From contig JANQLJ010000133.1 of assembly GCA_028280665.1 (NCBI GenBank), forward strand, positions 9,901-73,900: 64,000 bases of DNA, given 5' to 3'. Source of the stretch: Alphaproteobacteria bacterium (GTDB lineage Bacteria > Pseudomonadota > Alphaproteobacteria > JAJFIK01). The position numbers were made by a program, and so were the translations under genes. This document shows positions 29,080 to 46,633 of this stretch, piece after piece (positions within the stretch are counted from its first letter, which is position 1; every line of letters begins with the position of its first letter). The notes beneath the pieces were generated by a model, which worked only from the letters and a program-made list of their open reading frames with translations, searched no databases and was not told the DNA's origin.

Positions 29080-31785
29080 TTAGCCCGCGTTGCGGCGCTC
29101 GTTATCGGGTTCGTCCGGCGCCGCCTCGGGATTGGCGGAGCCTTCCTCGGCGGAAAGACCCTTCAGCTCGTCGGTGAGACCGCGAAGCGCATCGTGAATG
29201 GCCGAGAGCTCGTTTTCAGGAGGCGGGGTTTGCGACACACGCTGGCTTGCGCCTGTTGCCGGGGTCCTGACACTCTGCCCAAAGAAGCTTTTGCGCGGGG
29301 GCACCTTACCGCCGCGGGCGATCTGACCGGAAAGCCCGTCGATCCGCGTTTTCAGGTCGGCGGACGTATCTCGCATGATGCCCGAAAGCCGGTCCTGATG
29401 ACGCACAAGGGTTTCCATCATCTCATCGAGCTGCAGCCGGACGCCGCTCACGTCGGTGGTCTTAAGGCGCCGGGCAATTCCCCTGAGCCCATCGCGCAAG
29501 GCAAGGGCCATGGCTTCTTGCGCATCACCCATGGAGCCTTGAAGTGCCTCGACGCGGGCGATTTGCTCGGCAAGTGCCGGCGAGGGGCCAGCGTCCCGCG
29601 CGGCAACGGCTTTTGCAAGCGCGCGAAGTTCCACCGCCATTTGCCGCCCCGTTTCATCGAGCCGGTCGATGCGCGGGTCCAAGAGCGCCGTAACGTCCGT
29701 AGGCGGAATGATCTCCGCCTCGCCGCCCACAGGCACTTGCGGCACTTCAGCAAGGCGGGTTTGCAGGTTTTCTAGCGCGTCGGTGAGCTCTCCCGCCGCC
29801 TCGTTCTGCGCCGTGATCTTCGTGTTCAGGCGGTCGGAAAGGTCGAGCAAGCCGGTTGCGATCACGTGCTCGAAGGATCCGTTCTGGCTGTCGATCTTCT
29901 GGCCAAGTTGATAGACCGCGTTGGAAAGCGAACGTTGCGATGTTAGCGCCTGATCCTCGACGGCGCGGGTCAAGTGCGTCACCGCCTGGCCCATTTCATC
30001 GCGCAAGGCGCCAAGCACGGGCGAAAGATCAAGCGGCAATTCAATAGACTGGTTGATCGACGCCAGTTGCGCATCGAGGCTCTTGAGTGTGTATGCCAGG
30101 GTTTCTACCTGATCGCTGACGGCGCGGCGTTCGTGCTCGAACGTCATGTGCATGTCAGAGAGGTTTGTGGTGACGCCGCGGATCACATTGGCCTCGCCGA
30201 TAAAGGCGGCTTGCGCCTCGCCAAGGGCCGATTGGATGGCCGCGAGTTGCTGGTTAAGATGTTCGGCAACGCTTCCGCCCGAAGCTTTGAAGTCTTCGAT
30301 TTGCGCCTTGAGGTCCGCAAGTTCCCCGGTCATGCGTTCGAGCTTGCCGGGAAGGCCCTCGCTCTCCTCGCCCAGCGCGTTCGCGAGGCTATCCACCCGC
30401 GCCGCGGTTTCGCCAAGCTGCGCGATCATGTTTGTCGCCTCGTCGCGCAACTCGCCGCGTTCGGATTGCCAATGGGCGCGGTCGGCCTGGGCTTCGGACA
30501 TCACCGCAAGGCGCGTGTTGCGCGCGGCTTCCGCTTCCTTCGCCATGAGAACCGTTGCCGCTTGCGCCGTTTTGCCTGTGAGGTTGAGCTCCTTGACCGC
30601 CTTGTCGAGGGCGCCCATGGCGCCTTCCATGGGCGGGCCCGCCCGGTCGGCGAGTTGGCGCAGGCGGCCCAGCGCCTGATCGAGCGTGCCGATCTGGCCA
30701 TCGAGCGCAGAGAGGTGCGCGGTAAGTTCCTCCCGCGCCTGGGCGGTGGAGGTGTTGATGGCGTGCTGCTCGTTGCGCCAGGTCTCGGTAAAGTCGCTAA
30801 GTTCTTGCGTAGCGTGAGTGACGCGCGCGCCGGCGGTCGCGGTTGATTCCGCAAGCCGTTCTGAGGTGGCGCTCAAGCGATCAAGCTCGCCGCGCATGGC
30901 CTCGGCCAACTCGGTCATATCACCGCGCCAGCTTCCTTCTGTTTCAGCAAGGCTGTGGCGCGTGCCTTCAAGATCGCCCGCCACGCGCCGGACTTCGTCA
31001 CCCGCCGCCGCAAGGGCTTCAAGACGCCCGGCTGTTCCCGCCACCGCTTCATCGAGGGCGGTTTCGATGCGCGCCATGGCCTCGCGGCTTTCCCCGGCAA
31101 GCCCGTCGCGCGAATCGGAAAGGGCGCGCGCCGAGCCGCGCAAATCTTCCGTGGCCTCGGTGATATGGGCGAGCGCCGCATCCACCGCTTCGGCGCCGGA
31201 GCCTTCAAGACGCAGGCGCAAGGCGCCGTCGACGCCGACGGTCAAAAGCCGGCCCGCCTGAAGCTGGGTGCGGCGCAGGTCTTCGGCCACCCGCGCCACC
31301 ATGCCGATCTCGTCGTTCCGCTCGGTCCCGGGCAGGCTCCAGTCTTCTTCGTCGGCGAGCAGGTTTTCGAGGTTTTCGGAAAGTTTCCGCAAAGGGCGCC
31401 GCACATTGAGATGCAACAAAAGCGCGGTCAGTCCCAGAATAAAGACCGCCGCCCCGAGGGCGAGGCTGGTAATCCAGCGCTGAAGGGTCAAAACGCCGAT
31501 GGCGCTTTCGATCTGCTGCGCCTGGTCTTCGGCGGAAAGCGTTTGTTCCACCGCTACCGCGTCCGACAGCCGATCGCGGGCATCGAGCCCCATGGTGTTG
31601 GTCACCGCCGCCGCCACGACCAGCAAGACAAACAAGAAGACGGCGCCTATGACCAGAAACCGTCCGGTCAGGGTGAAAGACGTCAGTTTCGTTTTGAGCA
31701 TAGCGATGGCCCCAGTACGAGAAACGGCAATCCCCGTTCCCCCCTTGGCCATATTCGCCAAAGATGGCCTGCAGAAATGGCTCAC
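29080..31785 (-). CDS. membrane-anchored HAMP-domain protein with ~750-aa coiled-coil tail (no recognisable output domain)
   Basis: Two TM segments (FLVIGAVFLFVLLVVAAAV; ITSLALGAAVFILGLTALLLHL). HAMP-like RPLRKLSENLENLLADEEDWSLPGTERNDEIGMVARVAEDL. Remainder is heptad-rich A/E/L/R repeats. Track start 31785 is GTG; ATG alternatives at 31752 and 31701. Confidence 0.5.
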   Translation of the reverse strand: MSHFCRPSLANMAKGGTGIAVSRTGAIAMLKTKLTSFTLTGRFLVIGAVFLFVLLVVAAAVTNTMGLDARDRLSDAVAVEQTLSAEDQAQQIESAIGVLTLQRWITSLALGAAVFILGLTALLLHLNVRRPLRKLSENLENLLADEEDWSLPGTERNDEIGMVARVAEDLRRTQLQAGRLLTVGVDGALRLRLEGSGAEAVDAALAHITEATEDLRGSARALSDSRDGLAGESREAMARIETALDEAVAGTAGRLEALAAAGDEVRRVAGDLEGTRHSLAETEGSWRGDMTELAEAMRGELDRLSATSERLAESTATAGARVTHATQELSDFTETWRNEQHAINTSTAQAREELTAHLSALDGQIGTLDQALGRLRQLADRAGPPMEGAMGALDKAVKELNLTGKTAQAATVLMAKEAEAARNTRLAVMSEAQADRAHWQSERGELRDEATNMIAQLGETAARVDSLANALGEESEGLPGKLERMTGELADLKAQIEDFKASGGSVAEHLNQQLAAIQSALGEAQAAFIGEANVIRGVTTNLSDMHMTFEHERRAVSDQVETLAYTLKSLDAQLASINQSIELPLDLSPVLGALRDEMGQAVTHLTRAVEDQALTSQRSLSNAVYQLGQKIDSQNGSFEHVIATGLLDLSDRLNTKITAQNEAAGELTDALENLQTRLAEVPQVPVGGEAEIIPPTDVTALLDPRIDRLDETGRQMAVELRALAKAVAARDAGPSPALAEQIARVEALQGSMGDAQEAMALALRDGLRGIARRLKTTDVSGVRLQLDEMMETLVRHQDRLSGIMRDTSADLKTRIDGLSGQIARGGKVPPRKSFFGQSVRTPATGASQRVSQTPPPENELSAIHDALRGLTDELKGLSAEEGSANPEAAPDEPDNERRNAG

Positions 31786-32018
31786 AGAAACAGGGCGTTT
31801 TGCGTGGCCCTACGGTCCGCGCTTCTGGTTAAGGACTTGTTAATGATCGTAAAGGGGTAAGGAAAACCGGGGTGAAGGGCGGCCGCAGGTTAAATTTACC
31901 AAAAAAGTTGCACGGTTAACTTAGGCCCGTCTTAGCAACTAACAGGCAAAATGCAGAAGACCTGAGAGGTGTGTCTTGGTGAGTGCCACAACTGTTGCGC
32001 ATAGAGGCGCAGATCAAG

Positions 32019-32429
32019 ATGGTGAAGACAGCAAAACGTAAAGCCGGAAATGAGAGTGGCGCCGCGGCCGTCGAGTTTGCAATGGTGGTCCCGCTACTGC
32101 TTACATTGGTGCTGGGCACCATGGAAGCCGGGATGCTTTTTCAACTCAAAAACTCCATGACGTTTCACACGCGCGCCATCACGCGCGAAGTGGCCCTGGG
32201 GTCGCTTGACGGGAGTAATGCTCCGGCGGAATTGACCTCGCGGCTCGCGGGCTACGCTCAGCTCAATTACAACGTTTCGGTCACCGTGCCGGACCCCAAT
32301 GATCCGAACGACACCGATGTGGTTGTAACGGTCTCGGTCGCACAAACCGACCTTGAAGCCTACGCTATCACTGGCGTGCTTGTGATGGGAGACTATTCGA
32401 CCACGGCAACGATGCGTTCGCTGGAGTAA
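32019..32429 (+). CDS. TadE/TadF-like pseudopilin
   Basis: N-terminal AAAVEFAMVVPLLLTLVLGTMEAG, the TadE-like N-domain. Confidence 0.6.
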   Translation: MVKTAKRKAGNESGAAAVEFAMVVPLLLTLVLGTMEAGMLFQLKNSMTFHTRAITREVALGSLDGSNAPAELTSRLAGYAQLNYNVSVTVPDPNDPNDTDVVVTVSVAQTDLEAYAITGVLVMGDYSTTATMRSLE

Positions 32430-32433
32430 GATC

Positions 32434-33744
32434 ATGACACCGACAAAACCCACTTGTCCGTTCTGGCGTGCGTTTGCTAAGAACGAGGGCGGCTCGGCCA
32501 TACCCCTTGTCGCGTTGACAATCGTGGTCGCCACCGCCATGGCGGCATTCGCGGTTGATTTGAGCTACGTTTACCGGACCCAATCACAGCTTCTGACCGT
32601 TGCCGAAGCCGCCGCGCTTGCCGCCGCAAGCAAGCTACCGGATGAAACTGACGCCCTTGATCTTGCTCTCGAATACGCCGGGCTGAATCTTGAAAGCGCA
32701 CGGTTCACCGGTGCGGTTGAGGCGGCGGATGTGCGGTTCGGCAGTTGGGATCAAAGCACCGCGACCTTTACCGAAGACAGCTCGGGCGAGGCGGTCGAGG
32801 TGACCGCATCGCTCACCGGGCAAAAGGGCAATGCGATTCCGTCATTTTTGGGCGTAGTTCTTGGCCGCGACCAATTCGATGTCTCGACGACCGCCATCGC
32901 CACAACCTCGCCGGGATCGCCCGCCTGCATAACGGCGCTCGATCCCAATGGCTCAAAAGCGCTGTGGCTCGACTCAAATGCCGAGATACAAGTAAACGGC
33001 TGTGAGATCGTCGTGAACTCAAACCACGGACGGGCGCTCTATGCCGAGAGCAACAGCGCGATTCTTGATGCCGAACGCGTGTGCGTTGTCGGCGGCACCT
33101 TTACCAGCGAAAACAGCACGATAAATCCTGCGCCTGAAAATGGCTGCCCTCCTGTAGTCGATCCCTTCGCCCATCTCACGGAACCGCTTTATGGCGGCTG
33201 TGACTACAATAACCTGACCTTCGAGGAGGAAAACACAACGCTGTCCCCGGGTGTTTACTGCGGCGGCCTCAGGATCAGGAGCAATTCGAACGTTACCTTC
33301 AATCCGGGCATCTACATCATCAAAAATGGCAAGCTCGTCATCGAGCAAAACTCGACCGCTTCCGGCGTTGGCGTCGGCTTCTTTCTGACGGGCGGGAGCG
33401 GCCGTCTGGAATTCACCAGCAACGCCATAGTTGACTTCACCGCCCCCTCATCCGGGCCCCTAGAAGGCGTGGTATTTTTTCAAGACAGAAACTATGGCGG
33501 GACACACAAGATAGAAAGTAATAACGTAAGCGACCTGCTCGGCGCCATCTACCTTCCTGAAGGCAACCTTGAACTCAACAGCAACGGTGCAATTTCCCCA
33601 ATGGGAGGGTGTACACGGATCATTGCCCACCGGATCTTGTTTGAACAAAACAGTACGTTGAATCTCGACGCCGACTTTTCACAGTGCCCGGGTGGTGGCT
33701 CCAGCAGTTCCGGCGGCGGCAGCATGGTCCGCTTGCGCAGATAA
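32434..33744 (+). CDS. TadG-like large pseudopilin with N/S/T/G-rich C-terminal (beta-helix-like) domain; putative tip adhesin
   Basis: N-terminal AIPLVALTIVVATAMAAFAVDLSYVYRTQSQL is a TadG N-domain. C-terminal 250 aa has repeated NS/NST motifs, then GGGSSSSGGGS. Confidence 0.6.
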   Translation: MTPTKPTCPFWRAFAKNEGGSAIPLVALTIVVATAMAAFAVDLSYVYRTQSQLLTVAEAAALAAASKLPDETDALDLALEYAGLNLESARFTGAVEAADVRFGSWDQSTATFTEDSSGEAVEVTASLTGQKGNAIPSFLGVVLGRDQFDVSTTAIATTSPGSPACITALDPNGSKALWLDSNAEIQVNGCEIVVNSNHGRALYAESNSAILDAERVCVVGGTFTSENSTINPAPENGCPPVVDPFAHLTEPLYGGCDYNNLTFEEENTTLSPGVYCGGLRIRSNSNVTFNPGIYIIKNGKLVIEQNSTASGVGVGFFLTGGSGRLEFTSNAIVDFTAPSSGPLEGVVFFQDRNYGGTHKIESNNVSDLLGAIYLPEGNLELNSNGAISPMGGCTRIIAHRILFEQNSTLNLDADFSQCPGGGSSSSGGGSMVRLRR

Positions 33745-33919: not shown

Positions 33920-34438
33920 TCAGCTGATGCGTTCAACCATCGGCACGCGGCGGGGCCGCGCGAAGAAGCGGTCGGTCAATTCCACTTCATCGGTGAGAAA
34001 ATACCCAACCAGGGTCGAGTGAACATAGCGCACGTCCACGACCACGACGCTGGCGTTCGTGGTCAAGATCCCTTCGGGCAAATCCCCAACGGTGAAGCTA
34101 CCCGCGCCGCCGTTGAAGGTGTCGGTCCAATCGATTTCCGTGGTGCCGCCATTGTCGATCACGCTGACCACCGTCACCGAGAAATCGTCCGAGGGAAACG
34201 GCTGCAGCAACGCGGTCGCCACCGCATAGATGTCTTCCATTTCGCTGTCGGTCAGTTCGACATCCTGCGCGACCAGGTCGGCCACCGCGCTGGTGACGGT
34301 CGTCACTTTCCGGTCGATAATCAGAATGTTGGAAACTTCAACGCTCGCAAAGAAGAGCACGATCATAATCGGCGCGATGAGCGCGAACTCCACCGCCGCG
34401 ATGCCGCCTTGCGCTTTTTTAAATCGTTTGAAAAACAT
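33920..34438 (-). CDS. TadE/TadF-like pseudopilin
   Basis: GGIAAVEFALIAPIMIVLFFASVEVSN N-domain. Track start 34459 is TTG; first ATG (MFFKRFKK) at 34438. Confidence 0.6.
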   Translation of the reverse strand: MFFKRFKKAQGGIAAVEFALIAPIMIVLFFASVEVSNILIIDRKVTTVTSAVADLVAQDVELTDSEMEDIYAVATALLQPFPSDDFSVTVVSVIDNGGTTEIDWTDTFNGGAGSFTVGDLPEGILTTNASVVVVDVRYVHSTLVGYFLTDEVELTDRFFARPRRVPMVERIS

Positions 34439-34455
34439 GGCTGATCCCGCCTCTG

Positions 34456-35013
34456 TCAATTGCCGAGGGCACTGCCGAACGGCTCGTTCCGGAAAGCCGT
34501 GCTGGCCGAAAGAAGCCGTTGCGTCCCACCATTCATGTTCGCCATCACAAATCCCACGCCCGGCGTAAACACGTTCCAGCTATAGAATGTGCGAACCAGG
34601 ACAATATCGCCGCCGCCGCCGGCGTCGAAAGCCGGGTCGATGGTAAACTCACCGTCTTCGTTGATGGGATTTGCGAACGCAACCGAGCCGAACTCGTCGA
34701 ACGTTTGCACTTCGACCGTCAATGAATCGCAATCGAGCATCATGTCGATGCGGTCGCAAAGCTCGTCCTTGAACTGGGCACCGGTCATCGCGGCTTGCTG
34801 TGCCTGGCCCGTGCGAATAAGGCGCGAAGTCTCAAGCAAACCGTTTTCAAGTGTAACAGAGGCAAAGAAAATCATTGTCGATTCAACAACCGCAAAGATC
34901 AGTGCAAAGAACGGTCCCACAATCATCGCGAACTCAATCGCGGTTGATCCGGACGTGTTTTTGCGGAACCGGTCAAACAATCTCTTCAAAGAAAGGCGCA
35001 ACATAACGCTCAA
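34456..35013 (-). CDS. TadE/TadF-like pseudopilin
   Basis: GSTAIEFAMIVGPFFALIFAVVESTM N-domain; 4-nt overlap with the downstream pseudopilin gene. Confidence 0.6.
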   Translation of the reverse strand: MSVMLRLSLKRLFDRFRKNTSGSTAIEFAMIVGPFFALIFAVVESTMIFFASVTLENGLLETSRLIRTGQAQQAAMTGAQFKDELCDRIDMMLDCDSLTVEVQTFDEFGSVAFANPINEDGEFTIDPAFDAGGGGDIVLVRTFYSWNVFTPGVGFVMANMNGGTQRLLSASTAFRNEPFGSALGN

Positions 35014-35125
35014 CCCTTTTTGCGGTCTTTACCGCAGCAGATTGCACCTGGCGGCGTAAAGACTTCGCAAAGAGACTTGGTAAACTTGTTAACTAGTCCC
35101 GGCGTTTTGAGAATTTAGTTCAAAT

Positions 35126-36856
<1,731 letters not shown>

Positions 36857-36946
36857 GCGACAGGCGTCAGTAAGCAAAAAGCCAAGCTCAAGGACCGCAT
36901 TCTAAAGAAGCTGGCCACAAAGACAGACTAAGGAAACACGGCAAAT

Positions 36947-36977
36947 GAAAAGGGCTCCCCGCGGGGAGCCCTTTTTG
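36947..36977. terminator. bidirectional rho-independent terminator
   Basis: aaaa-GGGCTCCCC-gc-GGGGAGCCC-ttttt between convergent genes (vWA tadG end 36856; minus-strand gene end 37026). Confidence 0.6.
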
Positions 36978-37025
36978 TTGATCAGCTTATAGGTCTTGTG
37001 AGCCTTGGCTTTGTCGCTCGCCTTC

Positions 37026-37511
37026 TTACCGTTGGCCTTCGTCGCCGATGCTCATGCCCCGCTCGGTCAGGTCCTGCCAAGCGCCCGACTGGCCGGCAAA
37101 GTTATCGGCGGCGGTCGTTTCATCCCCCGGATGCAGCGCACGAACGCAGCGCGGGTTGCACACATAATTGACCGATCCGGCCCGGACGTTCTGGTTGGGG
37201 CTGCCCATGTGAACCGCCAAGCCGCCCCGCCATTGATCGGTGACGCTGACCGATACGGTCAAAAGCTCTTGGCCGTCCTCGTCGAGAACGGTCACGTCCG
37301 TATTGCCAAAAAGGCGCCCATGAACGACCAAAGTGTGACCATTGACCATAGTGACGTCCGCCACCATGGGATTGCCGACGATAATCGCATCGGGCTCGCC
37401 CTCAACGATCACGACGCTTGATTCATTCATCGGCACGTTCATCTGCGCCGCATAGGCCGGCAAGGCCAGTACGGACATAAGCGCCGTAAATCCCAGAAAT
37501 TTCAGCTTCAT
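37026..37511 (-). CDS. secreted pilus-formation N-terminal-domain (BON/secretin-N-like) protein
   Basis: Signal peptide MKLKFLGFTALMSVLALPAYAAQ. Body resembles the N-terminal domain of CpaC/RcpA secretins (pilus formation protein N-terminal region). Confidence 0.55.
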   Translation of the reverse strand: MKLKFLGFTALMSVLALPAYAAQMNVPMNESSVVIVEGEPDAIIVGNPMVADVTMVNGHTLVVHGRLFGNTDVTVLDEDGQELLTVSVSVTDQWRGGLAVHMGSPNQNVRAGSVNYVCNPRCVRALHPGDETTAADNFAGQSGAWQDLTERGMSIGDEGQR

Positions 37512-37896
37512 AGTCTTCTCCCCCGAAGCGCGGGTTTCATACGCGCGCCATCATGGCAGCAAGATGTAAATGTCCTCTCAACGAAACCCCTGGGGATTGA
37601 GAAATGATGACCGCGGCGAAAATAAACTTGGTCCGGGGCGCCCAAGGGACTCACAGAAAGCCTACAAACCTGCGCTTGTCGGGCCATTTCCATAAAATTT
37701 GATTTAAGTTTTATTTGAGGTTTAATTAAAATCTATACCTAATTTACATACCTCACTTCTTGGAAATACCTGACCTACTCCCTCTTTTAACCTGATCGTA
37801 AGACCTCTCCTCCATGATGGCCTCATTCGCGACGGGATGCGTCTCGTGACCCCGGCGCGGGTAGGTGCTGATGAGTAAAGAATGGGAGTACTGACC
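37512..37896. promoter_or_regulatory. divergent promoter region of the flp pilin operon; strongly AT-rich core (~37680-37800)
   Basis: ccataaaatttgatttaagttttatttgaggtttaattaaaatctatacctaatttacatacc is about 75 % AT in a ~63 % GC genome. TTAA half-sites present. GGGAG Shine-Dalgarno 9 nt before the flp ATG. Confidence 0.45.
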
Positions 37897-38058
37897 ATGA
37901 CCTTCGTTTCTCGCTTTGTGAAAGACGAATCTGGTGCCACGGCGATTGAGTATGGTCTCATCGCCGCGGGCATCGCAGTGGCCATCATCGGTGTGCTGAC
38001 GACCCTCGGAACGAACCTTACGGCTACGTTCCAGTCAGTCGCCGACGAGATGTCCTAA
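37897..38058 (+). CDS. flp: Flp-family type IVc prepilin
   Basis: 53 codons, hand-translated: MTFVSRFVKDESGATAIEYGLIAAGIAVAIIGVLTTLGTNLTATFQSVADEMS. Flp motif ...G/ATAIEYGLIAA with hydrophobic core. Not in the ORF track (under 60 aa). Followed by cpaA. Confidence 0.8.
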   Translation: MTFVSRFVKDESGATAIEYGLIAAGIAVAIIGVLTTLGTNLTATFQSVADEMS

Positions 38059-38211
38059 TAAGCCGACTTACTCGCGGCGCCGTTCCCCGGTCCCGGGCGC
38101 TTATGTCCGGGGCCGGGGCAACGGCCCCGAGGTCGGGTACTAACCACCCGGAAACATATTTGTGTTGAGGTCCCGCCTAGCGATCTTGGGAACATTTCGG
38201 GGGGATGACCG

Positions 38212-38715
38212 ATGGCTGAAATTGCCGTCTTTTGGATACTGCCAGCAGCGTTTCTCGTTGCAGCCTTTACGGACATCACCCGGTTTACTATTCCAAACTG
38301 GCTGACCAGCGTGATCGCGCTTTTCTTTTTGCCCGTTGCTCTTTGGGCGGGTATCGAACCCATCGTAATAATCGTCCATCTAGGCGTCGGCATCTTTGCC
38401 CTTGGCATGGGCATGATGTTTTTCGCCTTTGGATGGCTTGGCGGCGGCGATGCCAAGCTGGTGGCCGCGGCGGCCCTTTGGGCCGGCCCGACGGCCGTAT
38501 GGATCTTCGTGCTGGCAGCAGCGCTGTTCGGCGGCGCGCTCACCATGGCGCTGATCTTCTTCCGCAAGCTGCCTTTGCCTGAGTTTTTCGCGGCGCAGCC
38601 CTGGATCGCACGACTTCACGATCATGAAGCAGGCATTCCTTATGGCGTCGCGCTTTCCGCCGGGGCGCTCTACGCCCTTCCTTTCATGACCCTGAGCCAG
38701 GCGCTCGCCACATGA
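38212..38715 (+). CDS. cpaA: prepilin peptidase CpaA/TadV (A24 family)
   Basis: Polytopic membrane protein with the two catalytic Asp contexts FTDITRFTIPN and GGGDAKL. Confidence 0.8.
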   Translation: MAEIAVFWILPAAFLVAAFTDITRFTIPNWLTSVIALFFLPVALWAGIEPIVIIVHLGVGIFALGMGMMFFAFGWLGGGDAKLVAAAALWAGPTAVWIFVLAAALFGGALTMALIFFRKLPLPEFFAAQPWIARLHDHEAGIPYGVALSAGALYALPFMTLSQALAT

Positions 38716-38883
38716 GCTAAGGGTCCGACGCATACGGATTAACAAAATGGTAACGAATTGCGCGCCCCCGTCCGGAAAAACCCGGGCGGGGGTCGCTCGC
38801 GTTAAGACTAATTTGATTCACTTTGTGCATGCTCATCCCAAGGGCAACCAGGGAATGGCGGCAAACAGGGGGAGACCTACCCG

Positions 38884-39705
38884 ATGAACGCAATACGCAT
38901 ATCCATTTTGGGACTCGCGCTGGTCGCTGCCGGCGTCGCAGCCTATCTGGTGCGGGGTCTCGTGCTCGAGAACGAGCAGCAGACCGTTGACGCCGGCCCC
39001 GTTATCGAGACCACCGGTGTTCTGGTCGCCAGCGGGGTCATCATGCCGGGCGATACGGTAAACGCCGGCGCTCTGCGCTGGCAGGACTGGCCGGTTGATG
39101 CGGTGGCCCCGGGCCAGGTTACGCAAACCGCGCAGCCCAACGCCCGCTCGGACCTTCAAGGCAGCATCGCACGCCGCAGGTTCGGCGGCGGTGAGCCCAT
39201 CCTTCCCGACGCGCTGGTTAAGCCAGGCGAAGCGGGCCTGATGGCCGCGCTGGTCTCGCCGGGCATGCGAGCCATGGCGGTATCGGTTTCGGACGAGAAC
39301 TCGGCGGGCGGCTTTATCCTGCCCGGCGACCGCGTTGATGTGGTGGTCACCCGCGAGGTCGGCATCGACCGCAGCAGCCGCTCCTACGTCAGCGAGACGG
39401 TGCTTTACAACGTGCGTGTCCTGGCGATTGACCAGATCTTTTCCGAAGACGTCTCCGGCGGCGCGCTGGTGGGCGACACCATCACGCTGGAGTTGACGCC
39501 CGGCCAGGCCGAAACGCTGGCGCTCGCGCAAGCGGTCGGTGACGTTTCACTCGCGCTGCGCAGCTTTGCCGATGCAAACGCGGCGGAGACGCAAAACCAG
39601 CTTGCGGATGTCGTGGCGTCTGCCGACGAGCAGCGCTCGAACCAAATCACGGTTGTACGCAATGGACAGGAGACCCGCGTTCGGGTCGAAGGGGGCGGAC
39701 GATGA
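38884..39705 (+). CDS. cpaB: Flp pilus assembly protein CpaB/RcpC (SAF domain)
   Basis: N-terminal TM MNAIRISILGLALVAAGVAAYLV followed by a SAF-like domain. Operon position between cpaA and the secretin. Confidence 0.8.
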   Translation: MNAIRISILGLALVAAGVAAYLVRGLVLENEQQTVDAGPVIETTGVLVASGVIMPGDTVNAGALRWQDWPVDAVAPGQVTQTAQPNARSDLQGSIARRRFGGGEPILPDALVKPGEAGLMAALVSPGMRAMAVSVSDENSAGGFILPGDRVDVVVTREVGIDRSSRSYVSETVLYNVRVLAIDQIFSEDVSGGALVGDTITLELTPGQAETLALAQAVGDVSLALRSFADANAAETQNQLADVVASADEQRSNQITVVRNGQETRVRVEGGGR

Positions 39706-41132
39706 GCCGGTTCAACTTCAACACAAAAGCCAAAGCGCTTTTCGCAAGCATCGCGCTGGGGCTTATGATCGCCCCTCCGGCCGTAGCCCTGGAGAACCAG
39801 ATGTTCGTGACCATTCACGAAGCCGGTTCCGGGCACATGGCGCGTATGATCACCATACCGCACAACAAGTCGGTAATCGTCGAGTTGCCGGTGGACGCGG
39901 CCGACATTCTGGTCACCAACCCGGAAATCGTCGACGCCATCGTTCGGACCCCGCGCCGCACCTATCTGATGGGCAAGGCCGTGGGCCAAACAAACGCGTT
40001 CTTCTTCGATGCGCGGGGCCGGCAATTGCTGGATCTCGAAATCCAGGTGGAACGCGATCTCACCCCGCTCAATAATCTTTATGCGGAGCTGCTGCCCGAT
40101 GCACGCATTCAAGTGGACGCCATCAACGACAACCTGGTGCTGACCGGGTTCGTGCCCAACGCGGTCGCCGCCGATCAGGCGCGCGATCTGGCGGGCCGTT
40201 TTGTCGGCAACCCGGACTCGGTCCTGAACATGCTCAGCATCGAAGCCAATGAGCAGGTTCAGCTTCAGGTCCGCGTTGTGGAAATGCAGCGCAGCCTGGC
40301 GCGTCAATTGGGCGTGGACCTTGCCGCGTCGTTTAGCGCCGGCAACGTCGCCTTCTCGCCGGTCACGTCCAATCCGTTTTCGGTGGCGGGCTCCATTTTG
40401 GGCGGCCTGGGCACTCCCGCATCGCCGGACCGGACGTTCCGCTGGTCGTCGAACGGGGATTATCTTGATGGCTCGCTGCGCGCCTTTGAGCGCAACGGGT
40501 TGATCCGTACCCTGGCCGAACCGAACTTGACCGCCATCTCAGGGGAAAGCGCAAACTTCCTCGCCGGTGGTGAGTTCCCGGTTGCCACGGGCCGCGATTC
40601 CGAAGGCAACGCGACCATCGAGTTCAAGCCCTTCGGTGTCGGCCTTGGCTTTACCCCGGTGGTGCTCGACGAGGGCCGCATTTCGCTGCATATCAACACC
40701 GAAGTGTCGGACCTTTCGACCGACGGTGCCTTGCAGATCAACGATCTGGCGACCATTCCGGGCCTCACGGTGCGGCGCGCGGAAACTACGGTCGAGCTGC
40801 CTTCGGGCGGCAGCCTGGTGATCGCGGGCCTTCTGCAGGACTCAACCCGCCGCAACATGGACGGCGTCCCCTTTGTGAAGGACACGCCCGTGCTTGGCGC
40901 GCTGTTCCGGTCAGAGGACTACCAGAACGATGAGACCGAACTGGTGATCATCGTAACGCCCTACCTCGTTGACCCCACGGCGATGAGCGAGCTTGCCACG
41001 CCGGATCTCGGCTACGTGCCGGCAAATCCCGTTGACTCAACGTTCCTGGGCCGCCTGAACGCCACCTATGCGGTGGGTGAAGGGGCCGAGGGCCGCCGTC
41101 TTCAAGGTCCCGTTGGATACATTGTGGAGTAA
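39702..41132 (+). CDS. cpaC: Tad secretin CpaC/RcpA (type II/III secretion system secretin family)
   Basis: Secretin C-domain motifs ...VRRAETTVELPSGGSLVIAGLLQD...VPFVKDTPVLGALFRS...LVIIVTPYLV. Confidence 0.85.
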   Translation: MSRFNFNTKAKALFASIALGLMIAPPAVALENQMFVTIHEAGSGHMARMITIPHNKSVIVELPVDAADILVTNPEIVDAIVRTPRRTYLMGKAVGQTNAFFFDARGRQLLDLEIQVERDLTPLNNLYAELLPDARIQVDAINDNLVLTGFVPNAVAADQARDLAGRFVGNPDSVLNMLSIEANEQVQLQVRVVEMQRSLARQLGVDLAASFSAGNVAFSPVTSNPFSVAGSILGGLGTPASPDRTFRWSSNGDYLDGSLRAFERNGLIRTLAEPNLTAISGESANFLAGGEFPVATGRDSEGNATIEFKPFGVGLGFTPVVLDEGRISLHINTEVSDLSTDGALQINDLATIPGLTVRRAETTVELPSGGSLVIAGLLQDSTRRNMDGVPFVKDTPVLGALFRSEDYQNDETELVIIVTPYLVDPTAMSELATPDLGYVPANPVDSTFLGRLNATYAVGEGAEGRRLQGPVGYIVE

Positions 41133-41136
41133 GGCC

Positions 41137-41835
41137 ATGACTAAGATGAAACACATCGCGCTGAGCGCAACCTGCATCGCCTTGGCCGCAATGGCGGGCT
41201 GCGGGACCATGCGTGGAACGACGGATCCCAACCTGATCATGCAGTACGAGGAACGTCACCCCATCACCGTGCGGGCGACCGAGGCGGAAATGCAAATCTC
41301 GGTCAATCCGCAATCAGTGGCGCTGTTGCGGGTCGATGAGACGCGCCTGCGTGCCTTTGCGGCGGCTTACCGCACGCGCGGTCACGGGCCCATGGTCATC
41401 ATGGTGCCGTCGGAAACGCCGAACGCCATGGCGGCAACGCAAGTGATGGCCGATGTTCACGCGGTGCTAACCGAAGAAGGCCTGCACCCCGATGATGTGG
41501 CCTCGCAGGCCTATCACACGAACGAAAACCCGGCCTGGGCGCCGCTCGTGCTCAGCTTCCGGCGTTATCAGGCCGAAGCCGCGCCTTGCGGCGATTGGAG
41601 CGAAAGCTACACCCGCCGCTACAACGGCAATCCGACGCCCAACTGGGGCTGCGCCACGCAAAACAATCTGGCGGCCATGGTGTCCGAGCCGGCCGACCTG
41701 GTTGGCCCGCGGGACATGACCCCGGCAAACGCCGCGCAGCGGTCGGAAATGCTCGGCCGCTACCGCAGCGGGCGCGATACCAACACCGTTCGTTCAGGTG
41801 CGGATGACGCATCTGTTGCAGAAGACGTTCAGTAG
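41137..41835 (+). CDS. cpaD: pilus assembly lipoprotein CpaD
   Basis: Lipobox LAAMAGCG at residue ~20. Size and operon position match CpaD. Track start 41068 rejected. Confidence 0.6.
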   Translation: MTKMKHIALSATCIALAAMAGCGTMRGTTDPNLIMQYEERHPITVRATEAEMQISVNPQSVALLRVDETRLRAFAAAYRTRGHGPMVIMVPSETPNAMAATQVMADVHAVLTEEGLHPDDVASQAYHTNENPAWAPLVLSFRRYQAEAAPCGDWSESYTRRYNGNPTPNWGCATQNNLAAMVSEPADLVGPRDMTPANAAQRSEMLGRYRSGRDTNTVRSGADDASVAEDVQ

Positions 41836-41843
41836 TCAGAGGA

Positions 41844-43187
41844 GTGGCTGAGATGGCCGAACAAGCAGAAAATCTGACACCGGAAGAAGAAGACGGCGTT
41901 AGCGACGAAGGTAGTGTGGCGGAGCGCGCTGCTTCGCTGACCGCCGAGGTGGCGGGGCCCGTGGAACAACCGCGCACTGAAACTGTGCAGGTGCGTCCGG
42001 TTCCGCGGATCAGCATCGATTGCTTCTGCGATAACCCGGATACCGGATCGACGATCCAGCGGGCCGCTGAAGACCGCCGGCTCGCACGGACGCACACCAC
42101 CATCTACATGGGCGGTATCGACGCGGCCATCGAGCATTACAGCAGCCGCGCCACGCCGAACCTGATCGTGGTTGAAGACCTTGACGCCACGACGGACATT
42201 TTGAACGGGCTGGAGCGGCTTGCGGAAAGCTGCGACGCCTCGACCAAGGTGATCGTCATCGGGTCGAACAATGACATCGCGCTCTATCGGGAGCTGATGC
42301 GCGCGGGCGTGAGCGATTACCTGATCACACCGTTTTCGCCGCTTCAGTTCATCGAATCGGTGTCCTCGCTTTATGTGGACCCCAACGCGGGGCCGATCGG
42401 CAAGGTCATCGTCTTTGCCGGAACCAAAGGCGGCGCGGGCGCGAGCACTGTTGCGCACAATGTGGGCTGGCTGATCTCCGAGGAAGTCGAAGACGACGTC
42501 ACCATCGTTGACTTCGATGTTGCCTTCGGCACCGCGGGTCTCGACTTCAATCAAGAGCCTTTGCAAGGCGTCTCCGACGCCCTCGCCTCGCCCGAACGTC
42601 TCGACGACGTGCTTTTGGACCGTCTGCTCGCCAAGTGCACGGACCATCTGAACGTGCTTGCGGCGCCTGCAGCCCTCGACCGCGAGATGGATCTCGATCC
42701 GGGCGCCTATGAGTCGGTGCTTGATGTGGTGCGCCAGTCGTGCCCCGTGGTGATTGTCGACCTGCCCCACGTGTGGTCGGCCTGGTCCCGGCAAGTGCTG
42801 GTGGCCGCCGATGAAGTGGTGCTGGTGACCTCGCCGGATCTGGCGGGCCTGCGCAACACCAAAAACCTTGCGGACCTGCTGGTGCTGGCCCGCCCCAATG
42901 ACGCGCCGCCGCGGATCGTTTTGAACCAATGCGGTTTGCCGAAGCGTCCGGAGATCACCTCCAAGGATTTCGCAGACGCCGTTGGCCGCGACATTTCAGC
43001 GGCCGTTCCGTTCGATGCCATGTTGTTCGGTACGGCTGCCAATAACGGCCAAATGATCGGCGAGTTAAAAGCCGACGGAAAGCCGACCGAAGAACTGCGT
43101 GAACTCGCACAGCAACTCACAGGCCGTAAGGTTCCAGGAAAACAAAAGAAAAACGTCCTGACCAGACTCGTGGGTAGAAAGGGCTAA
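41844..43187 (+). CDS. cpaE: CpaE: REC-like N-domain + ParA/MinD-type ATPase
   Basis: Deviant Walker A VIVFAGTKGGAGASTVAHN; N-terminal receiver-like domain. Confidence 0.8.
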   Translation: MAEMAEQAENLTPEEEDGVSDEGSVAERAASLTAEVAGPVEQPRTETVQVRPVPRISIDCFCDNPDTGSTIQRAAEDRRLARTHTTIYMGGIDAAIEHYSSRATPNLIVVEDLDATTDILNGLERLAESCDASTKVIVIGSNNDIALYRELMRAGVSDYLITPFSPLQFIESVSSLYVDPNAGPIGKVIVFAGTKGGAGASTVAHNVGWLISEEVEDDVTIVDFDVAFGTAGLDFNQEPLQGVSDALASPERLDDVLLDRLLAKCTDHLNVLAAPAALDREMDLDPGAYESVLDVVRQSCPVVIVDLPHVWSAWSRQVLVAADEVVLVTSPDLAGLRNTKNLADLLVLARPNDAPPRIVLNQCGLPKRPEITSKDFADAVGRDISAAVPFDAMLFGTAANNGQMIGELKADGKPTEELRELAQQLTGRKVPGKQKKNVLTRLVGRKG

Positions 43188-43188
43188 G

Positions 43189-44646
43189 GTGTTTGGGAAA
43201 CGGGGACAAGGTGCGCCGCAAACCGTAACCGCCGATGCCGCCGCCAAGGCGGCCCCGGCGGAGCTTACGGGTGTGTCGGAAGCACCTTCGGAGAACAAGA
43301 AGCCGAAGATGCCGGCTCCGGAAGCGGTCGCCAAGAACGCGCCCAAAAGCGCGTCCGCGGCGACGCGGTCGGACGATTACTATGCTGTCAAGCAATCGAT
43401 CTTCGCCGCACTGATCGACACCATCGATCTGGGCCAGCTTGCCCAACTCGATCAAAAGAGTGCCCGTGACGAAATTCGCGACATCGTCACCGAGATCATT
43501 CAGCTCAAGAATGTCGTCATGTCCATCTCCGAGCAGGAAAACCTGCTTGAGGACATCTGTAATGACGTGCTGGGCTATGGCCCGCTCGAGCCACTGCTGG
43601 CGCGGGACGACATCGCGGACATTATGGTCAATGGCGCGGGCCGCGTCTTTATCGAAGTGGAAGGCAAGGTCGAGCTGACCCCCATCCGCTTCCGCGACAA
43701 CACGCAGCTTATGAATATCTGCCAGCGGATCGTGAGCCAGGTGGGCCGCCGCGTCGATGAATCGGCGCCGATCTGTGACGCCCGCTTGCAGGATGGCAGC
43801 CGCGTCAACGTGATTGCCCCGCCGCTGTCCATCGACGGGCCTTCGCTCACCATCCGGAAGTTCAAGCGCGACAAGCTGACCCTGAAGGACTTCGTCAATT
43901 ACGGCTCCATCAATGAGGCCGGGGCGGATATCCTGGGCATTATGGGCGCGTCGCGCTGCAACGTTCTGATTTCCGGCGGAACCGGTTCCGGTAAGACGAC
44001 GCTTCTGAACTGCATGACCGGGTTTATCGACGTCACCGAGCGGATCATCACCTGCGAGGACGCCGCCGAGCTGCAGCTGCAACAGCCCCACGTGGTGCGC
44101 CTTGAAACCCGTCCGCCCAACATCGAAGGGTTCGGCGAGATCACCATGCGGGACCTTGTGCGGAACTGCCTGCGGATGCGGCCTGAGCGCATTGTGGTGG
44201 GCGAGGTGCGCGGACCGGAGGCCTTTGACCTGCTGCAGGCCATGAATACTGGCCATGACGGTTCCATGGGCACGCTGCACGCGAACTCACCCCGCGAGGC
44301 CATGTCGCGCCTTGAAAGCATGATCACCATGGGCGGGTTCAACCTGCCCTCCAAGACCATCCGCGAAATGATCTGCGGGTCAATCGACGTGATCATCCAA
44401 GCCGAACGCATGCGCGACGGCTCGCGCCGCATTACCCACATCACCGAGGTGCTAGGCCAGGAAGGCGACGTGATCATTACGCAAGACCTTATGCTCTATG
44501 AGCTGGAGGGCGAGGATAACGGCAAAATCCGCGGCCATCACCGCGGCACCGGGATCGCCCGCCCTGCGTTCTGGGACCGGGCCCGTTACTTCAATCTCCA
44601 TGGCAAACTGGCAAATGCGCTTGACCGGTTGAACGAGGAGTTCTGA
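43189..44646 (+). CDS. cpaF: CpaF/TadA secretion ATPase (type II/IV secretion NTPase)
   Basis: Walker A ISGGTGSGKTTLLN; Asp box and His box (TMGG...) typical of TadA/VirB11. Confidence 0.9.
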   Translation: MFGKRGQGAPQTVTADAAAKAAPAELTGVSEAPSENKKPKMPAPEAVAKNAPKSASAATRSDDYYAVKQSIFAALIDTIDLGQLAQLDQKSARDEIRDIVTEIIQLKNVVMSISEQENLLEDICNDVLGYGPLEPLLARDDIADIMVNGAGRVFIEVEGKVELTPIRFRDNTQLMNICQRIVSQVGRRVDESAPICDARLQDGSRVNVIAPPLSIDGPSLTIRKFKRDKLTLKDFVNYGSINEAGADILGIMGASRCNVLISGGTGSGKTTLLNCMTGFIDVTERIITCEDAAELQLQQPHVVRLETRPPNIEGFGEITMRDLVRNCLRMRPERIVVGEVRGPEAFDLLQAMNTGHDGSMGTLHANSPREAMSRLESMITMGGFNLPSKTIREMICGSIDVIIQAERMRDGSRRITHITEVLGQEGDVIITQDLMLYELEGEDNGKIRGHHRGTGIARPAFWDRARYFNLHGKLANALDRLNEEF

Positions 44647-44651
44647 CGTTC

Positions 44652-45641
44652 ATGTCTTCAACGGTAATCCTGATCCTATTGCCCATCCTTGCGCTGGTGA
44701 CCGTGGCGGGCGTCGGCTATGCCTTTGTGGGCACGAGCAACACCAACGCCGTAGCAAAGAAGCGCTTCCAGAACATCAAGCAGGGCACGGCGGCTTCCAC
44801 GCGGGAATCAAATGCCCAGCAAAAGGAACGCGACCGGCGCAAGACGGTTCAAAAAACGCTTAAAGAGCTGGAAGAGCGGCAAAAGGAAGAGCGGGCAAGA
44901 ATCTCCCTGCGCACGCGCATTGAGCAAGCGGGCCTTAAGTTCTCTCCTCTTGTGTTCTGGCTCGGCTCGGGCGCCTTTGGCATCATCGGCTACTTCTCTC
45001 TTGCCATGAGCGGTCTTCATTGGACCGTTGCCATTGCCGGCGCGCTTGCGGCGGCGTTCGGTTTGCCGCGCTGGCTGCTCGGCTATCTCAGAACCCGCCG
45101 TCAAAAGGTGTTTTTGCTCGAGTTCGCAAACGCGCTCGATGTGATTGTTCGCGGCGTGAAGGCCGGTCTGCCGCTTTCGGAATGCCTCAACATCGTCGCC
45201 CGCGAAAGCCCCGACCCGGTCGGCGGCGAGTTCCGCCGGGTTGTGGAAGGCGCCCGCGTCGGCGTCACGCTGGAAGAAGGCCTGATGGGCATGTACGAGC
45301 GCATGCCGGTGCCGGAAGTGAACTTTTTCGTCATTGTGCTGGCGATCCAGCAAAAGTCGGGCGGTAATCTCTCCGAGGCGCTGGGTAACCTTTCGAATGT
45401 CTTGCGCGAACGCAAACTGATGCGCGGCAAGATTCAAGCCATGTCGTCGGAAGCAAAAGCGTCGGCGGGCATTATCGGCTCGCTGCCGCCGGGCGTGATG
45501 GCGCTCATCTATGTTTCGACGCCGTCTTACATCACCGTCCTGTTCAATGAGCAGATCGGCAACATCATCCTGATTGCGGGCGCTTGCTGGATGGCGCTGG
45601 GCATTCTGGTGATGAAGAAGATGATCAACTTCGACTTCTAG
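44652..45641 (+). CDS. tadB: TadB (type II secretion system F-domain inner membrane platform protein)
   Basis: GspF-like domain with three TM segments; operon position after cpaF. Confidence 0.75.
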   Translation: MSSTVILILLPILALVTVAGVGYAFVGTSNTNAVAKKRFQNIKQGTAASTRESNAQQKERDRRKTVQKTLKELEERQKEERARISLRTRIEQAGLKFSPLVFWLGSGAFGIIGYFSLAMSGLHWTVAIAGALAAAFGLPRWLLGYLRTRRQKVFLLEFANALDVIVRGVKAGLPLSECLNIVARESPDPVGGEFRRVVEGARVGVTLEEGLMGMYERMPVPEVNFFVIVLAIQQKSGGNLSEALGNLSNVLRERKLMRGKIQAMSSEAKASAGIIGSLPPGVMALIYVSTPSYITVLFNEQIGNIILIAGACWMALGILVMKKMINFDF

Positions 45642-45658
45642 GCTGGGGCGGACGAACT

Positions 45659-46633
45659 ATGTATGGCATCATTCAACTTCTGACGGACCCTGAGTTCTAC
45701 GCCGTTTTGTTCACGGCGGCGGCCGTGTTCGCCACGGTGCTGACCTTCACCCTGCCGCTTTTTCAAGGCAACAGGCTGAACGCGCGGCTCAAGTCCGTTG
45801 CGTCGCGGCGCGAGGAACTGCGCCTTAAAAGCCGTGAGGCGCTTATGAACGCCGAGCGCAAGAGAAGCATTCGCATGAACAGCGAAGGCCTTCGCGAACA
45901 ACTGGCCGACCGGATCAATCTTGAGAAACTGATGGACGCGCCGGGCACGCGCAAAACCCTCGCCATGGCGGGGCTGCGCGGGCAAGGGCCATACATCACC
46001 TACCTGTTCATACGGCTGGTGGGTCCGATCATCCTGGCCGCGGTCGGCGCGCTTTATTCTTTCGTGCTGGTGCAAACCGAGATGTTGCCGGTGGTCAAGT
46101 TCGCCATCCCGCTGGGAACCTTTGCCGCCGGATACTATCTGCCGACCATTATTCTGCGGAACATGGTGGAACGGCGCCAGCAATCGATCCAGCGCGCCTT
46201 TCCTGACGCGCTCGACCTTCTGCTCATTTGCGTTGAGTCGGGCATGTCCATCGAAGCCGGGTTCAGCCGCGTGGCGGCGGAAGTGGGCACCCAATCGCCG
46301 GAACTGGCCGAAGAAATGGGTCTGGTAACGGCGGAGTTGTCATTCCTGCAAGACCGCAGCCAGGCTTATGAGAACCTTGCTCAGCGCACGGACTTGCCGG
46401 GCGTGAAAGCAGTGACCACGTCGCTTATTCAGGCCGAACGGTACGGAACGCCCATCGGCCAAGCGCTGCGCGTCATGGCCGATGAAAACCGCGCCATGCG
46501 CATGCAGGTCGCCGAGAAGAAAGCGGCCGCCCTGCCCGCACAGTTGACCGTGCCCATGATCGTCTTCTTCCTGCCGGTCCTGTTCCTGGTCATCCTGGGA
46601 CCGGCGGCGATCCGTTTCTTCGACACCCAGTAA
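45659..46633 (+). CDS. tadC: TadC (type II secretion system F-domain platform protein)
   Basis: GspF-like; start chosen at MYGIIQLLTDPEFYAVLF (45659) rather than the track's 45584, which overlaps tadB. Confidence 0.7.
   Translation: MYGIIQLLTDPEFYAVLFTAAAVFATVLTFTLPLFQGNRLNARLKSVASRREELRLKSREALMNAERKRSIRMNSEGLREQLADRINLEKLMDAPGTRKTLAMAGLRGQGPYITYLFIRLVGPIILAAVGALYSFVLVQTEMLPVVKFAIPLGTFAAGYYLPTIILRNMVERRQQSIQRAFPDALDLLLICVESGMSIEAGFSRVAAEVGTQSPELAEEMGLVTAELSFLQDRSQAYENLAQRTDLPGVKAVTTSLIQAERYGTPIGQALRVMADENRAMRMQVAEKKAAALPAQLTVPMIVFFLPVLFLVILGPAAIRFFDTQ

Follow-up and report, generated by a model that had tools for sequence, protein, structure and literature searches.

Within the 64-kb window (the whole stretch of DNA that was analysed), a minus-strand gene encodes a large membrane protein with a HAMP domain and a long helical region next to a Tad pilus island. 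This raises the question what a protein of this type, in which no output domain can be recognised, does beside the genes of a surface machine. The gene, here called gene X, occupies positions 29080..31701 (−). The open reading frame itself extends over 29080..31785 (−) and had led the first-pass annotation to a size of ~900 aa, but the alignment of homologs and the conserved GGGG-N5-GCT-ATG context upstream place the true start further in, at ATG 31701..31699, with the stop codon at 29082-29080; the inner-membrane protein thus counts 873 aa. It matches P0001 at 100% (our searches used 29080-31698, which leaves off only the Met), and on its sequence gene X is confirmed as a genuine protein-coding gene. 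Rfam gave no match near gene X, and sigma-70 and terminator scans around it gave no informative signal.

Architecture of the protein and the search for an output domain

Hydropathy, profile matches and the secondary structure predicted by AlphaFold2 agree with the proposed order of two transmembrane (TM) helices, a HAMP domain and a long helical region. The two hydrophobic segments, at about residues 12-36 (TM1; 31594..31668 (−); conserved in the family) and 76-100 (TM2; 31405..31476 (−)), are separated by a remnant periplasmic loop of about residues 37-75 (31477..31593 (−)), recognised from an alignment gap relative to its relatives, and positive residues, located N-terminally and behind TM2, indicate an N-in/C-in topology. 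The HAMP domain (RRPLRKL...DEIGMVARVAEDLRR, residues 100-148; 31258..31404 (−)) follows immediately after TM2 and has the AS1-connector-AS2 order, AS1 containing a Pro and AS2 a motif of the DExG type (RRPLRKL...DEIGMVARV). In Pfam, HAMP (PF00672) was the sole match to this fragment, with 15.2 bits against a cut-off of 25; sub-threshold matches of 15-20 bits recur at the same position in relatives, and the cut-off is exceeded in the distant relatives P0021 (26.2 bits) and P0023 (25.9 bits). Furthermore, the top 15 matches of the family profile in the PDB are all to the HAMP domain of Af1503 (E 1.3e-4), aligned over AS1-connector-AS2, and P103, D130, E131 and G133 are invariant across the family, so that the HAMP assignment, together with the position of the motif, stands. 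The domain is followed by a signature, QAGRLLTxGxDGALRLRLEG (31198..31257 (−); conservation 0.84), which occurs throughout the wider superfamily as G-x-[LV]-x-[LIVM]-x-[LF]-[EDS]-G. Because this Gly-rich break interrupts the helix, classical transmission of a signal from HAMP into a helix is uncertain.

The tail that follows (residues 169-800; 29302..31197 (−)) is predicted by AlphaFold2 to be almost wholly helical (H203-350, H357-445, H450-552 and so on), at a low confidence (pLDDT 52). Hydrophobic residues recur in it most strongly every 3.5-3.6 residues (z 12.6 and 11.3 vs shuffles), and its best-register a/d occupancy is 0.69 vs 0.57 in shuffles. It had been described as a coiled coil of ~750 aa; the long helical region is indeed there, but it covers ~650 aa and, because of a Gly content of 8% and conserved Pro/Gly breaks, is better seen as a segmented rod of amphipathic helices and coiled coils than as a single continuous one. 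The tail is non-repetitive, as no convincing internal repeats were obtained when its blocks were compared with each other (hhalign probability <50%). One conserved break with its helix (residues 551-578, ..LPLDLSPVLGALRDEMGQAVTHLT; 29968..30051 (−); conservation 0.86) contains invariant columns. Beyond a weakly conserved Pro-rich linker (residues 801-828; 29218..29301 (−); pLDDT <50), the protein ends with an amphipathic helix, ENELSAIHDALRGLTDELKGLS (residues 829-851; 29149..29217 (−)), which also has invariant columns. No other stretch is as conserved (0.89), and the helix is a candidate partner-binding site. Conservation thus peaks at the HAMP domain with the post-HAMP motif, at one internal motif and at the C-terminal helix, a pattern that would be expected of a signalling hinge plus docking sites.

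Searches of Pfam, NCBIfam and PDB profiles yielded only sub-threshold coiled-coil noise and no output domain, in line with the earlier claim that an MCP, kinase or GGDEF domain is lacking. The MCP signalling domain (PF00015) gave no match in Pfam or NCBIfam, and in the PDB the Tsr chimera 3zx6 was matched only within its HAMP part; HisKA/DHp and HATPase_c were likewise not matched in any of the three. Of the SMC-like ATPases, in which Walker A/B head domains flank the coiled coil, only the coiled-coil region was hit (29-33 bits vs cut-offs of 300-729), and the C-terminal region showed no MCP or SMC homology in these searches. Labels such as SMC, archaeal SMC-like, FlaC or "chromosome segregation ATPase" were rejected as artefacts of coiled-coil composition.

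A rare family and the loss of the sensor in the window copy

Gene X belongs to a rare, unnamed family: 5.8 billion proteins yielded only 11 clusters, every one of them from uncultured Alphaproteobacteria. A scan of genome representatives retrieved homologs at only two MAG loci and a metagenome scan five loci from two samples; tblastn against plasmids gave no match. A second word-indexed search, started from the N-terminal alignment of the superfamily, yielded a single fragment, low-complexity words having probably saturated the candidates.

In the alignment, every relative has ~110 extra residues between the TM helices that are absent from the window copy (columns 74-183). This periplasmic insert is modelled as a NarQ/Tar-like four-helix-bundle sensor, the domain comprising ~110-150 aa. 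The model of relative P0003 has an overall pLDDT of 76, with about 90 for the periplasmic part; its top fold match is the periplasmic sensor of a histidine kinase, 4k0d (target TM-score 0.74), and further matches are to the Adeh_2942 sensor, the NarQ sensor-TM-HAMP fragment, the Tar ligand-binding domain and the Af1503 HAMP. The same deletion is present in an independent assembly, P0013. Judged from the alignment, the short loop of the window copy is a secondary deletion in a family that ancestrally carries a periplasmic sensor and a HAMP domain and, judged from the models, the ancestral combination of sensor, TM2 and HAMP is a receptor-type input module. The relatives of gene X share with NarQ, Tar/Tsr and Af1503 the order TM1, periplasmic helical bundle, TM2 and HAMP, as well as the Pro in AS1 and the DEIG in AS2. 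Unlike these receptors, gene X has no kinase, MCP hairpin or other output, and the Gly-rich motif after its HAMP domain leads into a non-homologous helical stretch of ~650 aa; in the window copy, moreover, the sensor is missing.

An input module of the Tar/NarQ type without an output domain, in a copy that has also lost its sensor and evolves faster than its neighbours (65% identity vs 83-91%), could be taken for a decayed chemoreceptor or sensor kinase that lost its output and is drifting, the loss of the sensor being a further step. This is, however, highly improbable: the reading frame is intact in every lineage of the family (873-1150 aa), strong conservation of motifs extends over the entire tail and the C terminus, the promoter block is likewise retained (see below), and the architecture is kept in more than 30 clusters of the wider superfamily, with an output domain in 0 of the 10 scanned.

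The size and topology of the protein had suggested a polar landmark protein such as TipN, in which two N-terminal TM helices are combined with a large coiled coil in the cytoplasm; TipN has a role in organising polar organelles and binds to an ATPase of the ParA type (PMC4085708). Compared by description only, TipN and gene X are alike in their two N-terminal TM helices, coiled coil, size and alphaproteobacterial origin. The gross topology agrees, but the likeness in the short loop is superficial: the periplasmic linker of TipN is ~15 aa long and no HAMP domain has been reported for it (10.1101/784066), whereas the window copy resembles it through its secondary deletion and all relatives carry a sensor of ~150 aa there, followed by HAMP. 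The resemblance is thus weaker than first thought. Our literature search found nothing linking TipN to HAMP, nor gas vesicles to HAMP.

A second group of landmark proteins, Agrobacterium GPR (Atu1348) and Sinorhizobium RgsE, shares with gene X a two-TM anchor, very long cytoplasmic helices and a Pro-rich region before a C terminus that is functionally important in GPR/RgsE (PMC8262873, PMC7327166). GPR differs in its size (2,115 aa), its 100-aa cytoplasmic N terminus and its strong coverage by PF01442, the apolipoprotein repeat domain, which is missing from the gene X product and weak in some family members (at most 36 bits vs a cut-off of 90, in P0008); like TipN, it has a short loop between its TM helices and no reported HAMP (bioRxiv 10.1101/784066; PMC8262873 Fig S3). 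A short look-alike motif follows the Pro-rich linker in both (LSAIyDALRGLT in X, GWISDLLRGAS in GPR). Homology with GPR (sequence from PMC8262873 Fig S3) was rejected, with a best BLASTP E of 0.03 in a 94-sequence database and an hhalign probability <1%.

Gene X could be a static polar landmark of the TipN/GPR type, marking a pole or division site through its membrane anchor and coiled coil, in which HAMP and sensor are vestigial and an effect on the pilus is one among several. The window copy does dispense with the sensor, and the CtrA-type box discussed below would suit a protein timed by the cell cycle. Nevertheless, we consider this unlikely, since every other lineage and the superfamily at large conserve both the HAMP residues and the periplasmic domain, which argues that these are not vestigial, and since gene X shows no significant similarity to GPR and differs from TipN in its HAMP domain and the ancestral length of its loop.

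Linkage to the Tad pilus genes and a conserved promoter block

In the window, gene X is separated by one intergenic region from a TadE-like gene (31983-32429) and a TadG-like gene (32434-33744), a pair on the plus strand (31983..33744) recognised with Pfam. The rest of the Tad island, annotated with Pfam on both strands of 33920..47605, holds two TadE genes, TadE179 (−) and TadE185 (−), a TadG-VWA gene (+), a pilN-domain gene (−) and the Flp pilin (37882-38058 (+)), together with CpaA, RcpC, the CpaC secretin, CpaD, a CpaE/TadZ-like protein, the CpaF ATPase, TadB and TadC, and closes with a TPR protein (−). Gene X adjoins tad genes in all eight lineages of the family (8/8), with identities of X ranging from 38% to 66% and with two different minor-pilin cassettes, so that the suspected co-occurrence with tad loci is borne out. 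In the seven other lineages (7/7) it lies directly downstream of, and co-directional with, TadG/TadE minor-pilin genes. The closest cassette relative, L018, has no TadE-TadG pair at the position corresponding to 31983..33744, and the divergent orientation of gene X and the Tad island, correctly described for the window, is found in this window only because that pair was inserted; it is a lineage-specific rearrangement and not a trait of the family.

To our knowledge, a comparable gene is absent from most Tad loci in other bacteria, and gene X is therefore not a core Tad component. All members of the family come from related uncultured Alphaproteobacteria and, on the family contigs, the flank with the FMN-dependent dehydrogenase is as conserved as the Tad flank, so the adjacency could partly be inherited synteny. 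Taken to its end, this would make gene X an envelope or cell-cycle protein of this clade that is unrelated to Tad pili. The downstream flank as a whole (FMN dehydrogenase, amidase, aminotransferase, sulfotransferase, MFS) is syntenic on the same contigs, gene X has its own predicted promoter, and the distant relative P0021 adjoins FtsW/RodA and pur genes, with no pilus or gas-vesicle cluster beside it. On the other hand, the junction with the minor pilins has outlasted a full swap of the cassette (~30% identity between cassettes) as well as a divergence of X down to 38%, whereas the opposite junction gains and loses genes (e.g., GNAT, orf226), and a second subfamily is likewise fixed to its own type of cluster, that for gas vesicles. 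We hold an explanation by inherited gene order alone to be doubtful rather than implausible.

The "TTAA-box" noticed in the intergenic region between gene X and the divergent TadE proved real in a pattern scan and invariant in the alignment of homologous loci. A perfect CtrA-type box, TTAAC-N6-TTAAC, lies at 31828-31843, 128 bp upstream of gene X and 140 bp upstream of TadE, within a conserved promoter block, CTTTACnATCATTAACAAGTCsTTAACCmGAAGCGC (31812..31854 (−)). The pattern TTAA-N7-TTAA occurs once in the 64-kb window (expected 0.15). Each homologous locus likewise has one match, in all cases a short distance upstream of the gene X homolog. In every lineage the homolog is preceded by the near-invariant block of ~40 bp, which is the only part of the intergenic gaps of 130-280 bp that can be aligned. 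Conservation includes the spacer of the box, a feature that CtrA by itself would not demand. As a sequence box, the promoter region of gene X carries the TTAA-N7-TTAAC pattern of the CtrA regulon, which makes control by CtrA a candidate mechanism; no ctrA gene was identified within the 64-kb window. Between cpaA and rcpC, and ahead of the terminal TPR gene, there are CtrA-like boxes with one mismatch.

Possible role in pilus assembly and in a wider superfamily

A pilus-linked scaffold or signalling role of the gene X product is likely as far as sequence and gene order can tell. As its most likely function we tentatively favour that of a transmembrane scaffold or signal coupler of the Tad machine, non-enzymatic and timed by CtrA, a reading to which we would give slightly less than an even chance. 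The protein would be of a homodimer type and devoid of enzymatic activity, its ancestral form a receptor that, like NarQ or Tar, has a periplasmic four-helix-bundle sensor followed by TM2 and HAMP, and in which hundreds of residues of segmented coiled coil and the conserved C-terminal helix would replace the kinase or MCP tip as output. The invariant CtrA-type box in its own promoter would time its expression to the cell cycle or development, together with the Tad pilus genes. Rod and C-terminal helix may recruit or position cytoplasmic partners, for instance the ParA/MinD-like CpaE/TadZ or the CpaF ATPase, and the TM-HAMP module may modulate this recruitment upon a periplasmic or membrane cue. 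Since it has lost the sensor, the window copy would probably be constitutive or sense only via its TM helices. In Caulobacter there is a membrane receptor, PleC, that senses membrane PilA and is tied to both the pool of Tad pilin and the cell-cycle circuit of CtrA (PMC7196804). It acts as a histidine kinase or phosphatase, whereas gene X has no catalytic domain and no homology to it, and any parallel would be mechanistic only.

The linkage with tad genes does not extend to the wider superfamily. Distant relatives share the N-terminal module and are placed at the end of gas-vesicle clusters, on the 3' side (3/3), which indicates that superfamily members have repeatedly become attached to the loci of large cellular structures. 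More speculatively, and in our estimate improbable as a whole, gene X and its distant relatives may form a previously unrecognised receptor-scaffold superfamily, consisting of a four-helix-bundle sensor, TM helices, HAMP, a Gly-strand motif, a long coiled coil and a C-terminal docking helix, that in Alphaproteobacteria is attached by subfamily to Tad pilus or gas-vesicle clusters and may place, tether or license assembly upon an envelope cue with CtrA-type timing.

Little is known of the placement and timing of Tad pili outside Caulobacter, and PodJ and TipN are narrowly distributed. The immediate impact of our findings is modest, as members of the family occur only in uncultured bacteria. The natural sensor-less variant in the window provides a ready-made comparison for the role of the periplasmic domain. 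If the proposed role is correct, a HAMP receptor with a coiled-coil scaffold as its sole output would represent a new route from an envelope signal to the assembly of a surface machine, and the parallel linkage of distant relatives to gas vesicles hints at a more general principle.

Reading frame and anatomy of protein X

The minus-strand open reading frame of 901 codons at 29080..31785, taken in the first-pass annotation to encode a 900-aa protein, exists, but because the Met at which all homologs begin in the alignment corresponds to the ATG at 31701-31699, and the GGGG-N5-GCT-ATG context ahead of it is kept in relatives, the product of gene X (29080..31701) is 873 aa long. It is identical to database entry P0001, and P0013, from an independent assembly, differs only in the start-codon call. 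The search query was 29080-31698, leaving out the initiator Met alone.

Hydropathy located both of the TM helices claimed earlier (approximately residues 12-36 and 76-100) and, since basic residues precede TM1 and follow TM2, the topology is predicted to be N-in/C-in. The HAMP pattern (residues 100-148) scores below the Pfam cut-off in X (15.2 bits vs 25), but it is the sole Pfam match to that fragment, lies at the same position in relatives, and exceeds the cut-off in distant relatives. The 15 best PDB matches of the X-family profile were all to the Af1503 HAMP (E 1.3e-4), in an alignment spanning AS1, the connector and AS2. On this evidence the HAMP, which was also part of the original description, is accepted as real. 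It is followed by a Gly-rich, strongly conserved motif, QAGRLLTxGxDGALRLRLEG.

The proposed coiled coil of ~750 aa was recovered as a periodic helical region, but it comprises ~630 residues, predicted as long helices at low model confidence (pLDDT 52), with a hydrophobic periodicity of 3.5-3.6 residues (z 12.6 and 11.3) and a best-register a/d occupancy of 0.69 vs 0.57 in shuffles. Because it contains 8% Gly, its Pro/Gly breaks are conserved and a search for internal repeats found none, the tail is best described as a segmented rod, which may be either a heptad coiled coil or a set of bundled amphipathic helices. The most conserved stretch of the protein is the C-terminal helix ENELSAIyDALRGLTeELKgLS, directly preceded by a poorly conserved Pro-rich linker. 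As had been noted, no output domain was found by Pfam, NCBIfam or PDB sequence search, and by the same searches X is not an MCP, histidine kinase or SMC protein; matches to SMC, apolipoprotein and baculovirus-PEP were all far under their cut-offs.

A rare family and the sensor lost from the window copy

X matches just 11 clusters (90% identity level; 38-66% identical to X) among 5.8 billion proteins, and when 1.84 billion representatives were searched with a profile, five matches fell below 1e-30. Genome representatives yielded two MAGs, labelled Rhodospirillales and Alphaproteobacteria, and metagenomes five contigs; no family member bears an informative name. In the alignment every relative has ~110 additional residues between the TMs. 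The model of the N-terminal module of one relative, P0003, is a helical bundle (pLDDT 76; about 90 in the periplasmic part), of which the best solved-structure match is 4k0d, a histidine kinase periplasmic sensor (target TM-score 0.74), followed by a NarQ sensor-TM-HAMP fragment, the Tar ligand-binding domain and the Af1503 HAMP; the E-values are weak (0.02 or above), yet the set is coherent. It follows from this modelled resemblance that the ancestral protein had a receptor input module. In the window the sensor has therefore been lost in frame, and although X does possess the short loop of the TipN-like topology attributed to it, that loop is derived.

The Caulobacter new-pole landmark TipN has two TMs with a ~15-aa linker and a coiled coil (PMC4085708; 10.1101/784066); X was compared with it by published description only, and we found no literature linking TipN to HAMP. 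In GPR/RgsE of Agrobacterium/Sinorhizobium, two TMs are combined with a helical stretch of ~1,700 aa (PMC8262873, PMC7327166). BLASTP and hhalign of X against GPR (sequence from PMC8262873 Fig S3) gave no significant similarity. GPR has a short loop between its TMs, a long N-terminal extension and no HAMP-like motifs. The likeness is limited to a short C-terminal motif, following a Pro-rich linker in both (LSAIyDALRGLT in X, 29149-29217 (-), vs GWISDLLRGAS in GPR, residues about 1945-1968), which is not statistically significant. That X is a purely static landmark is a rival reading, to be weighed with the short loop on one side and the HAMP and the ancestral input module on the other.

Pilin cassettes and a CtrA-type box

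Co-occurrence with tad loci, by which the first-pass annotation had proposed to check the link, was found in all other lineages whose sequence extends upstream (L001/L020, L002/3, L004/5, L006, L007/16/17, L008/9, L018/19): the X homolog comes straight after the Tad minor-pilin genes, reading in their direction, and an FMN-dependent dehydrogenase flanks it on the opposite side. The divergence of X from the Tad island is true of the window, but it results from an extra TadE-TadG pair (31983-33744, +) inserted in inverse orientation between TadE179 and X. Two unrelated minor-pilin cassettes, ~30% identical to each other, occur: TadG-TadG-TadE148-TadE138 and TadG-VWA(-)/TadE185/TadE179, the latter being present in the window (73-79% identical to L018). 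Comparison of window 31983-36856 with L001 6189-9868 and L018 2834-5671 shows the minor-pilin region as a swappable cassette in otherwise syntenic genomes. A complete Tad set makes up the remainder of the island (Flp, CpaA, RcpC, CpaC, CpaD, CpaE, CpaF, TadB, TadC, TPR protein). Identity to the closest relatives is 65% for X and 83-91% for neighbouring enzymes.

Most relatives carry a GNAT acetyltransferase gene that separates the X homolog from the dehydrogenase; L002 lacks it, and so does the window, where the gap is just 95 bp (28985-29079). The real amidase is the plus-strand ORF 26327-27814 (75-84% identical to the PF01425 genes of relatives); the 522-aa ORF 26234-27802 (-), overlapping it on the opposite strand with no Pfam match, is a shadow ORF. 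The sole Rfam match in the window is a bacterial small SRP RNA (RF00169, 62 bits) at 58158-58253 (+).

The TTAA box reported upstream of X was borne out and extended. TTAA-N7-TTAA occurs once in the window (31829-31843, 128 bp upstream of X); with 0.15 expected and at least one in 13 of 100 shuffles, this uniqueness by itself is weak evidence. Homologous loci, however, each contain exactly one, always in the gap immediately upstream of the X homolog and inside a near-invariant ~40-bp block (CTTTACnATCATTAACAAGTCsTTAACCmGAAGCGC) surrounded by unalignable DNA. Its core, TTAA-N7-TTAAC, is the CtrA consensus established in Caulobacter. Because the block with its single box precedes each homolog, X has its own, strongly constrained CtrA-type promoter, and we infer from the sequence that CtrA binds there. 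Boxes with a single mismatch were found between cpaA and rcpC (38739-38754 and 38801-38816) and just ahead of the TPR (TadD-like) gene at the end of the island (47615-47630). With the sensor lost, X might be regarded as a decaying receptor, but this is unlikely because frames are intact and motifs and promoter are conserved in all lineages.

The wider superfamily and the predicted role of X

Among weaker profile matches, with E from 1e-17 to 1e-4, the proteins are 700-1150 aa long and share the N-terminal module; their HAMP is followed by the signature G-x-[LV]-x-[LIVM]-x-[LF]-[EDS]-G. In the ten scanned with Pfam the tails are long and helical, and there is no output domain. A related C-terminal motif, for instance LTEVIDILEQRS, is found in other subfamilies. 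P0021 adjoins FtsW/RodA and pur genes. P0019 (L014 8001-11450), P0017 (L011 376-3594) and P0038 (L021 7797-10535) are each the last, co-directional gene directly after gas-vesicle genes (GvpO/A/F/L/G/K, GvpK, or GvpN-like and GvpF/L, the adjoining genes being GvpK or GvpN-like and GvpF/L). CtrA-like but non-canonical elements lie upstream of distant relatives at L014 7868-7881, L011 about 247 and L015 about 93, namely TTAAC-N5-GTTAA (N6 spacing), TTAACGGACCATTTAC and, adjoining the start codon, TTAACCAT. A Flp pilin gene and an NMT1_3 gene are found both near P0038 in L021 and at the Tad island of the window.

Since these four relatives sit in other contexts, tad linkage is specific to the X subfamily, while attachment of the superfamily to loci for large structures recurs. 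That X is functionally unrelated to Tad is a rival reading, to be set against its place beside minor-pilin genes across lineages. The most economical reading is that X is a dimeric, non-enzymatic receptor-scaffold, predicted to be produced together with the Tad machine and to be subject to CtrA-type control. Cytoplasmic partners would be bound through its coiled coil and C-terminal helix, and the TM-HAMP module would link this binding to a cue from the envelope or the membrane. The allele in the window would be a variant without the sensor.
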